Source: Planctomycetota bacterium
GTDB lineage: Bacteria > Planctomycetota > SZUA-567 > H5-PLA8
Direction: 5' to 3'
NCBI GenBank assembly: GCA_045863855.1
Contig: BTVV01000003.1
Coordinates: 32,001 to 96,000 of the forward strand
Length of the DNA stretch: 64,000 nucleotides
Notes under the pieces: model-generated
What the model saw: the letters and a program-made list of their open reading frames with translations, nothing else
The model's database searches: none
Told to the model about the DNA's origin: nothing
Part shown: in pieces, positions 31,420-41,227 of the stretch
How the letters are laid out: every line of letters starts with the position of its first letter
Numbering within the stretch: the stretch's first letter is position 1
Program-made: the position numbers and the translations under genes

Positions 31420-32076
31420 TTAGCGGTCGTTACCGAAGATCCCGAAGCCGCCGCCGTCGGGCGGCGGGGCGCTGGACGCGTCGGTGGCGGCGTGTCCCGA
31501 GCCGCTGGCGCCGGCGGATTTGGCTTTGGGCGGCGGTTCGGCCGGAGCGGGCGTTGGCGGGGGTGCGGGCTTCATGCGCAAGCGCGTCGGCGGGCGCGTC
31601 TTCTGTGCGGCGGGCGCCGCGGATTCGGCGACGTCCTCGGTGTCGTCGCCTTCCGGGCCGGCGTCGAATTCGTCGTACTGCGCGGGAACGTAGCCGGGCT
31701 GGCGGCTGCGTTCGAGTTCTTCGTTAAAGTTCTTGAGGATCGCGTCCTGGAGTTCGTTGCGGCAGCGGCTGTTGATGGGATGGGCGATGTCGGCGTGGAG
31801 CTTGGCCCGGCCGCGGCTGTCGGTTCGGGAGCGGTTCTCGCCCTGACGCTTGCCGCACTGGTTGCAGTACTGCGCTTGCAGATGGTTCTTGGTTCCGCAC
31901 TGCGGGCAGCGGTCGGTCATTTTGCGGCTGGGCATGGCGACGAAGAGCGCGTTGTTGCCTTGGATCACGCGGATATCGCGCACGACGAAGCTCTGGTCGA
32001 AGGTGACGCTGGCAAAGGCGAGCAGCTTGTCGGTTTGCCTAGAGACGAGCTTGATCTTGATTTCCGTGATGCGCAT
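31420..32076 (-). CDS. spoVG: SpoVG family nucleic-acid-binding protein with C4 zinc-ribbon insertion and disordered tail
   Basis: MRITEIKI, LLAFASVTFD, LFVAMPSRK, CPQC..CNQC, DIAHPIN. Confidence 0.92.
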   Translation of the reverse strand: MRITEIKIKLVSRQTDKLLAFASVTFDQSFVVRDIRVIQGNNALFVAMPSRKMTDRCPQCGTKNHLQAQYCNQCGKRQGENRSRTDSRGRAKLHADIAHPINSRCRNELQDAILKNFNEELERSRQPGYVPAQYDEFDAGPEGDDTEDVAESAAPAAQKTRPPTRLRMKPAPPPTPAPAEPPPKAKSAGASGSGHAATDASSAPPPDGGGFGIFGNDR

Positions 32077-32204
32077 AGAGCATCCTGTGGCCGCGTACCG
32101 GGCGGTCGAATTCAATAATGGGACTCGTCCGCGTCTCCTTAATACGGCAGGATCAAGCGACAGGGTCGAGCCCGTTCGATTTAGCCATCCACTTCACCAG
32201 CCGG

Positions 32205-33095
32205 TCATGGTCTACGTGTAGTAGCTTGAGTTCGAATGAGTCGCACCTTTGAAGGCAGGCTCGACTCCAGTTTTCGATGCACGGTTGCCGCATCCACTGT
32301 TGAACTGACTACAAAGTGAACGGCTCCACTGCCCGATAATTGCCAACGACCCGGCACCGTAGCATCCAACCACTGGTGAAGTTCCACCAATCGCGGCTCG
32401 GCATCCCGGGCCGCTTTCTGTAAACCGTTGTGAGGCCAGCCCGGCATAGGATCGTTATTGTACAGTTTAACAAGTTGCATCCTAATGTTGTCCGAAACTT
32501 CTGTCAAGACGCGGGCAGGCCTTTTGTCGCTCCATGCCGGCGCCTGTAGGACTTTATACACCAGCGGAGTGGGAATGCCAAAAGCCGGAATAACAAGAAA
32601 AAAGACGGGCGTTTTCGTTTCAGGCGTTTCAGGTAGGCGTTCGATAACTTCCCCCCGGCCCAAGCAGCGGCACCACCCGCCCCACAGGAAGAAAGCCACG
32701 TCGCTGCCCAAGGTTGCGGCCACTTCGGCGAGGCGTTCGCGCGGCCAATGCAGTCCCCAAAGCTCATTCAGGGCTTCCAGGGTGCAGGCGGCATCGCTGG
32801 AGCCGCCGCCCAACCCGCCGCCCGCCGGAACGTGCTTTTCCAGGTGTATCGCCGCTCGCGCCGGAACCCCGGCGGCTTCGGCCAAACGCTTGGCCGCACG
32901 GACAACCAAATTCGTATCGTCGGCGGGCAGGCTGGGGTCAGTGCATGTGAAGTGGAGCGTCGCGGCGGGCTCGAAGCGAAGCCGGTCGGCCAACGCGATG
33001 CTGACCATGACCGTATCCAGCTCGTGGAAACCGTCGGGGCGCTTACCGAGGATGTGGAGGTCCCAGTTGAGTTTGGCGTGTGCGAGTCGTTCCAT
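32205..33095 (-). CDS. ispE: 4-diphosphocytidyl-2-C-methyl-D-erythritol kinase
   Basis: AKLNWDL..DGFHEL, PAGGGLGGGSSDAA, LGSDVAFF, LSGSG. Confidence 0.95.
   Translation of the reverse strand: MERLAHAKLNWDLHILGKRPDGFHELDTVMVSIALADRLRFEPAATLHFTCTDPSLPADDTNLVVRAAKRLAEAAGVPARAAIHLEKHVPAGGGLGGGSSDAACTLEALNELWGLHWPRERLAEVAATLGSDVAFFLWGGWCRCLGRGEVIERLPETPETKTPVFFLVIPAFGIPTPLVYKVLQAPAWSDKRPARVLTEVSDNIRMQLVKLYNNDPMPGWPHNGLQKAARDAEPRLVELHQWLDATVPGRWQLSGSGAVHFVVSSTVDAATVHRKLESSLPSKVRLIRTQATTRRP
32479..32507 (-). promoter_or_regulatory. sigma70 promoter internal to ispE, oriented towards spoVG
   Basis: Minus strand TTGACA-17 nt-TAGGAT. Confidence 0.7.
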
Positions 33096-34811: not shown

Positions 34812-34817
34812 GTAAGC

Positions 34818-34846
34818 AGGCACGCAGGCTATGAGCCTGCGTGCCT
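34818..34846. terminator. hairpin between convergent GH30 and rtcB genes
   Basis: AGGCACGCAGGCT-atg-AGCCTGCGTGCCT, a 13-bp stem with no clear U-tract. Confidence 0.5.
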
Positions 34847-34857
34847 TCGTATTCGAT

Positions 34858-36027
34858 TCAACCTTTCAAGGCCATGAGCGGTTCCAGTCTTAGCCACGGC
34901 TTGGCCAGTTCCGCTTGTTGATTCAAGACGGCCTTGATGTCCTTGTAAGCCTGTGGCGCTTCTTCGAGCAGGGCGCTTTCCATGCCGGGCATTTTCGAAT
35001 AGACGACGTGGGCCATTTGGCGCCGTACGTCCCGCGGCCTGATTCTCCTATGAGCCTCGGCCCGCGAAAGCGCGCGCCCCGCTCCGTGGGCGCAAGAAGC
35101 GTACGCTGCGGTGAAACCCAAGCCTTCAACGATATAGCTGGCCGTGCCCATGGAGCCCGGGACGATCCCGCGGCGCCCGGATTCGGCCGGCATCGCGCCT
35201 TTGCGGTGAACGAATAGGCTCTTTCCTCCATGGCTTTCCAGGGTGATGAGATTATGCGCCACGTCGAAGACTTCGCCCGTTTCCAACGGTTGTTGAGTGA
35301 GTTCCGAGAGGGCTTCGACAACGCGCTCCTGCATGCGTAGGCGATTTTGCCGAGCGAACTCCAGGGCCCATGCCAGATCCGAGAAAAACGCGCGTGCATC
35401 GGCGCCGCCGGCTTCGAAATACGGCAACGGTTCGCGCCAAGCGGCGCACGTGTTTCGCGCACGAGCCGCTTGGCCGTGGTGAGCCGCGATCGCGGCGCCC
35501 AGCCCGCGCGAGCCGGAATGAACCGTGGACCAGAGGCGGCCTTGGGTATCGCGTTGGAGTTCGACGAAGTGGTTGCCTTCTCCGAGCGTGCCCAAGTGGC
35601 GACCCCCGAGCCAAGCGGCGAGGTGCCTAAGACTGGGAGTGCTGAGGTCGCCGGGCCGCAAATTGCCGGGAAGTTCTTGCGGCCGCTTGTGAGCTCGCCG
35701 TCCGACGGGGATGCGCGAGCCGATCCGTGCGAGCAGCGCCTCGAGGTGTTCTCGATGCAGCGAGGCCGCATCGAATTCGAAGCGTCGCGTATTCATGCCG
35801 CAGCCCAAGTCTTGTCCGATGGCGCTGGGCAGCACGCAAGATTCGGTCGCGAGAACCGTGCCCACGCAGACGTCGCCGGCGAAATGGATGTCCGGCATGA
35901 CGGCGATGGGACCGGCGAGCCGGTCCCATCGCGCCAAGCGCTTCAGGAGTTGCATGCTCTTCTGGTCCACCCGCTCGGCCCAGCAATAAATGGGCACGGC
36001 CTGCGTCTCTTCCATGATGGTATTCAT
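34858..36027 (-). CDS. rtcB: RtcB family RNA ligase
   Basis: MPDIH, DLGCG, GTLGEGNHF, HSGSRG, HRKGA, PGSMG, HGAGR, EAPQAYK; ATGA overlap with the upstream gene. Confidence 0.95.
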   Translation of the reverse strand: MNTIMEETQAVPIYCWAERVDQKSMQLLKRLARWDRLAGPIAVMPDIHFAGDVCVGTVLATESCVLPSAIGQDLGCGMNTRRFEFDAASLHREHLEALLARIGSRIPVGRRAHKRPQELPGNLRPGDLSTPSLRHLAAWLGGRHLGTLGEGNHFVELQRDTQGRLWSTVHSGSRGLGAAIAAHHGQAARARNTCAAWREPLPYFEAGGADARAFFSDLAWALEFARQNRLRMQERVVEALSELTQQPLETGEVFDVAHNLITLESHGGKSLFVHRKGAMPAESGRRGIVPGSMGTASYIVEGLGFTAAYASCAHGAGRALSRAEAHRRIRPRDVRRQMAHVVYSKMPGMESALLEEAPQAYKDIKAVLNQQAELAKPWLRLEPLMALKG

Positions 36028-36374
36028 GCGTCGCCTCCGATCCGGGCATCCGGATGCCAAGGAAGGTAATTGAGGCGCAGCACGGGCATCCGTTTCATGC
36101 GCAAGGACTCCGCCAACTCCATGCGCAGTCTGCGTTCGACGCGGGATAAAGCGTATTCGATCCGGTGGGACTCCTGGGACGGCGCGGACGATTGAGGTCC
36201 CAGCCAGACGTGAATGCACGCCAGGCTTCTGACTTCCACATTCACGAGGCGCAAATCCTGCAAAACCGGATCTTCCAGTGCGGGCAACAGGCCGGTAACG
36301 AACAACTCGGCGACGGCGTGCGCGATGCGGTCGTTGCGGTAGCCGCGCCTCGGCGAATCGTGAGGCGATGACAT
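36024..36374 (-). CDS. RbfA-like (ribosome-binding factor A paralog)
   Basis: RNDRIAHAV..LEDPVLQDLRLVNVEV..LRMELAESLRMKRMPVLRL matches the RbfA pattern; AAGGAG RBS. Confidence 0.75.
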   Translation of the reverse strand: MSSPHDSPRRGYRNDRIAHAVAELFVTGLLPALEDPVLQDLRLVNVEVRSLACIHVWLGPQSSAPSQESHRIEYALSRVERRLRMELAESLRMKRMPVLRLNYLPWHPDARIGGDA

Positions 36375-36477
36375 GACACGACGCTCCTTGCGGCTTCAAG
36401 CCGCGGAATGGGATGACCCCACGCCGCTAAGCGTTCAGCCGGAAAGAGCCTTAAGCACGATGCTTACGGCGAGTCGA

Positions 36478-36525
36478 CTAGCCGCGGACGTGGAGGAACG
36501 GGGAAGGAGCGGATGAGGCACGCAA
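36478..36525 (-). CDS. putative 15-aa leader peptide MRASSAPSPFLHVRG
   Basis: AAAGGAGG (36533-36540) lies 7 nt before TTG; stop TAG at 36478-36480. Confidence 0.55.
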   Translation of the reverse strand: MRASSAPSPFLHVRG

Positions 36526-36668
36526 GGAAGTTCCTCCTTTGATCGTCCGAAAGCCCATGGAAATATCCAACGAGACAAAACGTACCCCATCAAAGCACGC
36601 GGCGCAAGTTTTGGGTACGCTCCGGTTCCTCACCCAGGTAAAGGACCCCTTCAAGCGGAGCCGGCGTC

Positions 36669-39980: not shown

Positions 39981-40823
39981 TCAGCCGCAACACTTTCCAG
40001 ACGCCGGCTTGCGCGCGGCGATGGAGAGGCTGGTGATGTAGTCGCTCGCGCGGTGTCCGTCGGGCAGGTGGCTCAGGATTTCCCTGTAGAGCGGATCGCC
40101 GGAGCCGAGCATCGCTTCGACGTAGCCGGGGCGCGGTTCGAGCGCCAAGGCGGTCAGGCCCACAGCCCGGATGAGTCGATCGACCTCGGCCAAGGTGAGC
40201 GCTCCGGCGACGCAGCCCACCAGCGCTTCGACGCTGGAGCGGAGCGCTTCGGGCAAGGGACGCAGGAGCGCCATGTCGCTGATCGCCACGCGGCCCCCGG
40301 GCTTCAGCACGCGGGCGATCTCGCGCCACACTTGCGGCTTATCGGGAGACAAGTTGAGTACGCAGTTCGAGAGAATCACGTCAACGCTGGCGTTCTCGAC
40401 CGGAAGATGCTCGATCTCGCCGAGGCGGAATTCGACGTTGTCGTAGCCCATACGCGCGCGGAACGTCACGGCGTTGGCGCGTGCGCGCGCGAGCATCTCG
40501 GGCGTCATGTCCACGCCGATGGCGCGTCCAAGCGGACCGACTTTCTCGGCGGCCAGGAAGACGTCGAAACCTCCGCCGCTGCCCAGGTCGAGTACGACCT
40601 CACCCGCCCGGAGCTCGGCCAGCGCGGTGGGATTCCCGCAGGAAAGCCCGAGGTTGGCGCCTTCGGGTAGCCTTTCCAGTTCGCCGTTCTCGTAGCCCAA
40701 CTTGAGCGCCAGTTGGTCCGGCGGCAGTCCACCGCAGCAGGCGCCCCCCGCGCATGGCCCGTTTTCGGCCACCTTGGCGTAGCCCTCGCGCACCTGATCG
40801 CGGATTTTTTCCGAAGCGTTCAT
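39981..40823 (-). CDS. arsM: arsenite S-adenosylmethyltransferase
   Basis: [37 protein letters not shown]; coupled to arsR. Confidence 0.92.
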
Positions 40824-41227
40824 CGCATTTTCCTTTCGTCGCAGCATGCGGACTTCGATGGAAGGGGCCTTTTCGGCGGTGCGCAGCACTCGCGCTGCTC
40901 CCGCGCCCGGTACAGGCGTTGGCGGTCGCGCTCGGCCGGCGGCGCGGAGCCGCCGCAACAGGTGAGGCATTCCAGCAACTTTCGATGCAGGATGCCTTGC
41001 GCCGGCGCGAGCTTGTAATGTACCCAGAGGCCTTTCTTACGCGCTTTCACCAGTCCCGCCCGGCGCAGGTACGCCAGATGGCGCGAGATCTTGGGCTGCG
41101 GCGCTCCGATGGCGGCGACGAGATCGCAGACGCAGGATTCTCCTTCCCGCAGCAGCGCCAGCAGGCGCAAGCGGGTGGAGTCGGCTACGGCGCGAAAGAG
41201 TCGATCGGCCTGGGTCATGGGCGCCAT
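40820..41227 (-). CDS. arsR: ArsR/SmtB family repressor
   Basis: FRAVADSTRL, ESCVCDL, QPKISRHLAYL, GLWVHY. Confidence 0.92.
   Translation of the reverse strand: MAPMTQADRLFRAVADSTRLRLLALLREGESCVCDLVAAIGAPQPKISRHLAYLRRAGLVKARKKGLWVHYKLAPAQGILHRKLLECLTCCGGSAPPAERDRQRLYRAREQRECCAPPKRPLPSKSACCDERKMR

Follow-up and report, generated by a model that had tools for sequence, protein, structure and literature searches.

The window, by which is meant the whole 64,000-nucleotide stretch of Planctomycetota DNA analysed here, carries on its minus strand a conserved unit of three parts. These are a short leader open reading frame (ORF), a gene for a paralog of the ribosome assembly factor RbfA, and a gene for a dedicated RtcB RNA ligase. 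The leader ORF (36478..36525) consists of 15 codons and a stop, has a TTG start, and is preceded by a strong Shine-Dalgarno (SD) sequence at 36533..36540. From its stop to the ATG of the rbfA-like gene (36024..36374, 116 aa) the distance is 103 nt, and the SD of the latter gene lies at 36381..36388. The rtcB gene (34858..36027, 389 aa) follows at once, since the stop codon of the paralog and the start codon of rtcB overlap in the sequence ATGA at 36024-36027. Together with a GGAGG site in the last codons of the paralog, this overlap forms a coupling junction (36024..36039). A preliminary description of the locus had reported an RbfA-like gene coupled to rtcB, and both ORFs and the overlap lie where it placed them. 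The leader ORF sits inside the coordinates of that description, which missed it. The possibility that the 116-aa ORF is a mis-called frame was rejected.

The neighbours of the pair are a GH30-like hydrolase gene and DUF2961. Neither infB nor truB adjoins it, as had been remarked before, and no rtcA or rtcR stands beside the window's RtcB. Neither a GH30-like gene nor DUF2961 was found beside the pair in the four listed loci of the family that are more distantly related. Beyond the rtcB stop, and before the GH30-like gene that converges on it, lies an 18-bp inverted repeat (34813..34851, assigned to neither strand), which may be a shared terminator; the output of a consensus terminator scan does not include it. 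A scan for sigma-70 promoters detected none at the locus, and PADLOC returned no match.

The window's RtcB scores 288 bits against PF01139 (cut-off 27). When it is aligned with Pyrococcus RtcB, residues D73, C76, H153, H170, H258 and H314 fall on D95, C98, H203, H234, H329 and H404, positions that comprise the Asp, Cys and three His manganese ligands and the guanylylated His (PMC8051266). All metal ligands and the catalytic histidine are present and the active site is intact, in line with the recognisable catalytic motifs noted in the preliminary description. The Asp, the Cys and the four His are invariant in all 56 members of the RtcB clade described below.

The upstream gene can be recognized as RbfA-like by several routes. 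Against the Pfam RBFA family (PF02033) the 116-aa protein scores 21.6 bits, below the cut-off of 34.7, which some linked paralogs at other loci do exceed. A family profile made from 22 sequences matches eight solved RbfA sequences, with a best E-value of 1.5e-8; its ninth match is an unrelated designed coiled coil. The AlphaFold2 model (pLDDT 82.6) has the order helix-strand-strand-helix-strand, which is the KH type II topology. The top 20 Foldseek matches of this model are all RbfA or RBFA-bound mitoribosome entries, the best being 1jos (E 1.5e-4, TM 0.66). The nearest clusters in the ESM Atlas are RbfA-like and are commonest in Planctomycetota and Myxococcota (score 0.91).

The same genome has a separate, housekeeping rbfA on contig C20 (19735-20043), which reaches 85.7 bits and is thus above the Pfam cut-off. 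It is preceded by ORFs that are presumably nusA and infB, and the window's paralog lies outside this nusA-infB operon. A separate housekeeping rbfA is also found in four of five close relatives and in five of five distant carriers. That the window's gene is the only rbfA of the genome is ruled out by the copy on C20, a canonical second gene of the kind that the preliminary description had suggested looking for. Fold and second copy together bear out the identification of the window's protein as an RbfA paralog.

Three rtcB genes are present in the genome: that of the window, one in an rtcR-rtcB-rtcA locus on contig C34, separate from the pair, and an rtcB2 on contig C247. The last of these has 86% DNA identity to the rtcB2 of the closest relative (G002), carries an in-frame stop at a position occupied by Trp in that relative, and is not followed by prfH. 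Neither an archease nor a prfH above the cut-off was found in the genome, which is 94% complete. The earlier statement that rtcA, rtcR, archease and prfH are missing from beside the pair therefore stands.

The conservation of the pairing was surveyed from the RtcB side in a pool of 144 distinct RtcBs, the family loci included. The pool was drawn from 80 GTDB loci among the matches listed, all 34 matches from 151 Myxococcota genomes, and, for 301 Planctomycetota genomes, the best 30 of 70 matches. The 80 GTDB loci are mostly unrelated RtcBs and serve as a control set, not as a census. One clade takes in 56 of the 144 sequences, 29 of which belong to a single Myxococcota subclade and are not independent. 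It is recovered with FastTree on all sequences and with IQ-TREE on 47 (UFBoot 100), and its hosts are Planctomycetota and Myxococcota. On the tree RtcB2 is its sister (UFBoot 92), a placement that may be an artefact, given a branch of 2.13 substitutions per site and a distant root.

In 55 of the 56 clade members the RbfA paralog lies directly upstream, and in the remaining one (L165) a transposase gene of an insertion sequence (IS) has come between paralog and rtcB. Outside the clade a paralog was found near 1 of 88 RtcBs, 3 of the 88 having less than 450 nt of upstream DNA. An in-frame NTGA overlap joins the genes in 49 of the 55 linked loci, while RtcB identities among paired loci fall to about 40%. 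Likewise, five of 40 relatives searched carry the paralog, and rtcB follows immediately in all five. The survey of rtcB neighbourhoods that had been suggested for this locus thus shows a pairing with RbfA paralogs that is conserved across two phyla.

Within these phyla, the unit occurs in 34 of the 151 Myxococcota genomes sampled, and the pair in at least 18 of 301 Planctomycetota genomes, as judged from the best 30 of 70 matches. No prfH above the cut-off was found in the same Myxococcota sample, where the unit is common. Named carriers are a Planctomycetaceae genome and Cystobacter fuscus (L019), which is an example of a carrier in culture. Three other phyla, which we take to be Acidobacteriota (151 genomes), Verrucomicrobiota (121) and Desulfobacterota (121), gave 26 listed loci; among the top 22, two of which repeat earlier loci, none falls in the clade and none has a paralog nearby. 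The confirmed spread is therefore two phyla. The preliminary description had named three findings on which its proposal would fall, and the opposite was found in each case: the protein has the RbfA fold, it is not the sole rbfA, and its pairing is conserved.

The third part of the unit, the leader ORF, has 15 codons in six of six family loci and in one further locus (L219), and its GGAGG-type SD is kept in seven of seven aligned loci. If leaders are counted as ORFs of 8-35 codons with a strong SD and no more than 520 nt upstream, one precedes 49 of the 56 linked paralogs (6/6, 30/30 and 13/20 by subfamily). The same rule gives 3/29 for housekeeping rbfA, 17/84 for other rtcB genes and 6-9% for shuffles. 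Because leaders precede so many of the linked paralogs, the leader points to a translational attenuator. The sequences of the leader peptides vary between subfamilies, and Rfam has no match for the leader RNA.

A consensus structure predicted with RNAalifold contains three helices. In helix 1, an anti-SD segment within leader codons 5-7 (36505..36512) pairs with the SD of the paralog (36381..36388). In helix 2, the 3' end of the leader (36482..36493) pairs with a downstream segment (36419..36429), for which an alternative pairing just downstream is possible. Helix 3 is a hairpin (36390..36404) that abuts the 5' side of the paralog's SD. In seven sequences, helix 1 has 92.9% of cells paired, with three of eight pairs changed on both sides, helix 2 has 94.8%, with two of 11 pairs compensatory, and helix 3 has 97.1%, with no covariation. 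For the whole consensus 94.6% of cells are paired, a value reached by 3 of 500 shuffles, and five of 24 pairs are compensatory, a number reached by none of 500; slid controls have 31-52% of cells paired. These figures are support for the structure and not proof, because it was derived from six of the same seven related sequences.

A degenerate pattern taken from the non-coding part of the leader RNA alone was also scanned against metagenomes. Of its three matches, one (L219) is a locus not met before, complete with leader, paralog and coupled rtcB; one is an apparent repeat of a locus already in the set (L217, repeating L014); and one is a chance match inside another gene (L218).

The behaviour of such a leader can be modelled by folding the RNA with and without a ribosome. 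In ribosome-free single-sequence folds the SD of the paralog is 85-99% paired. Masking by a ribosome at codon 5 lowers the energy needed to open it in five of six sequences (from 10.9 to 7.2 kcal/mol in the window), whereas masking at codons 13-16 mostly gives no drop. In the model, this contrast has the direction that attenuation requires. The modelled switch is only partial, as opening of the SD stays at or below 36%, and helix 1 is absent from the lowest-energy fold of the window itself (z -1.93). Of 46 loci in which the duplex between leader and ribosome binding site (RBS) could be compared with matched controls, 11 reach p<=0.05; the window has p=0.47, and the duplex is missing from an RNAalifold consensus of 15 Myxococcota leaders. 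Leader–SD pairing with covariation was found in the window's subfamily only and is weak in the other subfamilies. Overall, attenuation by ribosome stalling is regarded as likely.

A shared switch need not imply a shared task. One alternative is that the attenuator turns on both genes, which then do separate jobs: the paralog, like RbfA, would reactivate or mature idle 30S subunits, and RtcB would repair tRNA or other RNA alone. The survey from the RbfA side offers some evidence of this kind. Among 16 classified paralogs, which are part of the RbfA-side matches and not all of them, 11 are linked to rtcB and five have no rtcB downstream, yet a leader ORF still precedes two of these five. The one paralog found near an RtcB of another clade (L045) lies 665 nt upstream of it, with another ORF in between. 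Moreover, in Anabaena both rtcB and rbfA are induced by translational stress although the genes are unlinked (PMC8421152).

This division of labour is nevertheless somewhat unlikely. Every clade RtcB has its upstream paralog, if the IS-split locus is counted, and the codon overlap persists in two phyla. The same three subfamilies are recovered on the RbfA tree and on the RtcB tree. The trees also differ: on the 112-column RbfA tree the paralogs are not recovered as monophyletic, the Myxococcota copies grouping with housekeeping RbfA, but the ligases paired with these copies join the window's subfamily on the RtcB tree. Finally, the genome already has its separate rtcR-rtcB-rtcA locus.

What the paralog itself may bind can be judged from the motifs by which RbfA holds the ribosome. 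In solved RbfA complexes, residues of the AxG and D-P-R motifs contact the 3' end of 16S rRNA (PMC8177701, PMC9917171). In the window's paralog AxG is replaced by V79-E80-R81, and the D-P-R loop reads D35-P36-V37, so that D-P is retained and the Arg is gone. The residue after the AxG position, which probably corresponds to Phe78 of E. coli, is Arg and not aromatic. AxG is kept in two of six linked and three of 16 unplaced copies of the window's subfamily and in seven of 20 copies of the third subfamily, compared with 29 of 30 Myxococcota copies and 25 of 30 housekeeping RbfAs. The Arg of D-P-R is kept in none of the six linked copies of the window's subfamily, 21 of 30 Myxococcota copies and 28 of 30 housekeeping RbfAs, and an aromatic residue follows AxG in all 30 Myxococcota paralogs.

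Other features are common to the paralogs as a whole. The basic residues of helix 1 are retained across all groups, as is a K/R-K/R-x-P loop, represented in the window by the widely kept K94-R95-x-P97. This loop is the element that wedges at h28. The core of the paralogs has a net charge of +0.5 to +2.1, compared with +6.3 in housekeeping RbfA, and in place of the long C-terminal helix by which the latter contacts S7 the paralogs have a short tail. As the motifs are kept in the one case and lost in the other, binding to the 30S subunit is, on motif content, well supported for the Myxococcota paralogs and doubtful for the window's. The window's copy may have a low affinity for 30S, may favour a damaged conformation, or may have turned to another target.

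A changed target is the core of another alternative, in which the paralog has left the ribosome and either loads RNA onto its own RtcB as an adaptor or activates this enzyme, in a role like that of archease and on non-ribosomal RNA. The erosion of the 16S-contact motifs in the window's and third subfamilies, the lower positive charge and the loss of the S7-touching helix all fit such a role, as do the lack of a detected archease in the genome and the codon overlap, which suggests matched amounts of the two proteins. Nevertheless, the 16S-contact motifs are almost complete in the Myxococcota copies, the helix-1 basic residues and the K/R-K/R-x-P loop persist in every group, and paralogs without an RtcB partner exist, which together make an adaptor of this kind unlikely. 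A prediction of the RtcB–paralog complex scored 0.02 (mark 0.32), which speaks neither for nor against contact. The lost motifs and the Pfam score below the cut-off might also be taken as signs of a decaying duplicate, or of chance neighbours with no common role. Such an explanation is hardly credible in view of the counts given above, which contradict it by showing the pairing, the overlap and the leader to be conserved in two phyla.

The preferred reading is that the three parts make a stall-switched unit, in which the 3' fragment of 16S rRNA is held on the free 30S subunit by the paralog while RtcB reseals the break; we give it about an even chance of being correct. At rest, pairing of leader codons 5-7 with the RBS of the rbfA-like gene, for which the segments are in place, would keep that site shut. 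Slowing of a ribosome near the beginning of the leader would place it over the anti-SD segment and loosen the RBS. Through the ATGA overlap, RtcB would then be made together with the paralog. Judging from the structures of RbfA, the paralog would occupy the mRNA exit channel and hold the 16S 3' end there; it would stop the h44 linkers from becoming fixed and the subunit from entering initiation. RtcB would meanwhile reseal the cut 16S on free 30S subunits.

The proposal of 16S as the substrate comes from the damage itself, because both known repairable cuts release a 3'-end fragment at the known site of RbfA. One of the two is made by MazF, whose specialised-ribosome model is disputed. The MazF cut releases a 43-nt 3' piece of 16S, which E. 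coli RtcB religates (PMC5416887), and the colicin E3-type cut at A1493/G1494 releases a 49-nt piece (PMC9304027). Housekeeping RbfA takes hold of the 16S 3' end, and with it bound the h44 linkers stay disordered (PMC8177701, PMC9917171). That the window's paralog would hold damaged 30S for its RtcB is plausible. RtcB2 reseals the cut at A1493/G1494 on the 30S subunit after PrfH has freed the peptide, and is described as repairing 30S without a partner (PMC9304027, PMC13166195); a holder protein may therefore be unnecessary.

The preliminary description had gone one step further and suggested that the paralog stands in for PrfH. Taken literally, the paralog would rescue or split stalled, damaged 70S ribosomes and in this way give RtcB access to the cut. 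In favour of this, prfH above the cut-off is rare where the pair occurs, being present in none of the 151 Myxococcota and four of the 301 Planctomycetota genomes, one of the four being G002. The window's genome, with its interrupted rtcB2 and no prfH adjoining it, also fits. However, PrfH hydrolyses peptidyl-tRNA by means of a GGQ motif (PMC9304027), and the paralog is a single KH domain without one. RbfA is moreover known to act on free 30S and not on 70S (PMC8177701), and G002 has both PrfH-RtcB2 and the RbfA–RtcB pair. A literal replacement of PrfH is not supported, given the absence of GGQ and this co-occurrence, and a 70S-rescuing paralog is highly improbable.

Burroughs and Aravind (2016) is reportedly the main survey of RtcB neighbourhoods, and Maughan and Shuman (2015) is said to deal with the RtcB paralogs of Myxococcus. 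Outside these two papers and the supplement of PMC9304027, full-text literature searches found no description of an RbfA–RtcB pair. The main texts of PMC10630183, PMC9304027, PMC6514570 and PMC12776372 do not mention RbfA. The unit is apparently undescribed: a case of RtcB repair assisted by a partner, here an unusual one, and with a switch that probably senses stalling. It may, somewhat more tentatively than the mechanism above, be regarded as a second ribosome-repair route not described before, with a stall-sensing leader, an RbfA-paralog clamp on the severed 16S 3' piece, and a dedicated RtcB clade.

Of eight RtcB clusters, Tian et al. could assign substrates to no more than three (1a, 1b and 2), and the other five are open (PMC9304027). 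For one distinct RtcB clade, the unit supplies a partner together with a candidate regulator and a substrate that can be tested. If the preferred reading is true, myxobacteria and planctomycetes have turned an assembly factor into a chaperone for ribosome repair, and RNA repair is switched there directly by ribosome stalling and not by RtcR. Because the unit is common in Myxococcota and cultured carriers exist, both genetics and reconstitution are within reach.

Several known systems resemble parts of the unit. With housekeeping RbfA the paralog shares the KH type II fold, the helix-1 arginines, the D-P residues and the K/R-x-x-P loop. Unlike it, the paralog is a second copy, located outside the infB operon, coupled to rtcB and placed behind a leader ORF.

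Another comparison is with leader-peptide attenuators of the erm/msr type. These have a short, strongly initiated ORF, pairing with the downstream RBS, and alternative helices. The window's leader is likewise short and has a strong SD, and part of it can pair with the downstream RBS, but it precedes a candidate RNA repair pair instead of a resistance gene.

The RtcR-RtcB-RtcA operon (PMC12776372) has in common with the unit the chemistry of RtcB and a role in stress-related RNA repair. That operon is switched by RtcR, whereas the window's unit is apparently controlled at translation. Closer to the proposed substrate is the action of E. coli RtcB on MazF-cut 16S, where the short 3' fragment stays on the 30S subunit (PMC5416887); this fragment is the piece that RbfA binds. 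In that case, unlike the window's unit, repair is carried out by the ordinary E. coli RtcB, in an account that names no RbfA partner (PMC5416887).

The closest parallel is the PrfH-RtcB2 module. It too is a two-gene unit, similarly compact, in which a distinct RtcB clade is joined to a ribosome-related partner. The partner in the window is an upstream KH-domain RbfA paralog and not a downstream release-factor homolog, no prfH adjoins the ligase gene, and the ligase itself is under the RtcB2 cut-offs (140.4 bits against 271.8 for TIGR03073, and 175.3 against 407 for PRK09588). Because G002 has both systems, the pair is not a one-for-one replacement of PrfH-RtcB2, and the two may instead cover related damage.

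The gene downstream of an RbfA paralog, the diverged extra copy of RbfA, may be something other than an rtcB of the RbfA-linked clade. An example can be found in a Polyangiaceae genome (L045:3806-6188), where the gene order is a leader ORF, the RbfA paralog, a conserved-looking ORF of approximately 225 aa, and RtcB. This RtcB falls in a different clade from the RbfA-linked RtcBs, and the arrangement is possibly a partner swap. Another example is seen in genome G166 (L200:2025-3120). Here the place of rtcB is taken by what is presumably a QueE-like radical SAM gene, and the paralog, a near relative of the window's subfamily, is coupled to it through an overlap.

The junction between paralog and rtcB can also be interrupted or spaced. 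In genome G358 (locus L165), a transposase gene, which we take to be IS630-like, separates the RbfA paralog from the clade rtcB. A unit of approximately 65 nt, present three times, lies between the paralog stop and the rtcB start at L017:1213-1407 and abolishes the overlap that is usual elsewhere.

On the other side of rtcB, an ORF in genome G001 (L013:3018-3333) begins 3 nt past the rtcB stop. We assume that it encodes an AAA-type ATPase; no such ORF was found in the remaining family loci listed.

Elsewhere in the window, an ispE-like GHMP kinase gene precedes a gene for SpoVG that carries a zinc ribbon insertion (31420-33095), and an ArsR-family regulator precedes a methyltransferase (Pfam Methyltransf_31; 39981-41227) that resembles ArsM.

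The window's genome carries other rtcB genes. One is rtcB2-like (G000:C247:1477-2604; loci L005 and L007), with an in-frame TGA at the position of a Trp in the closest relative, G002. Directly after this gene prfH is absent, and the 330 bases downstream of it contain a tandem duplication of approximately 80 nt. The gene looks like part of a decayed rtcB2-prfH operon, or else an assembly error. Another belongs to an rtcR-rtcB-rtcA locus (G000:C34:5176-12116), in which RtcB is longer (502 aa) and a 202-aa ORF sits between rtcB and rtcA.
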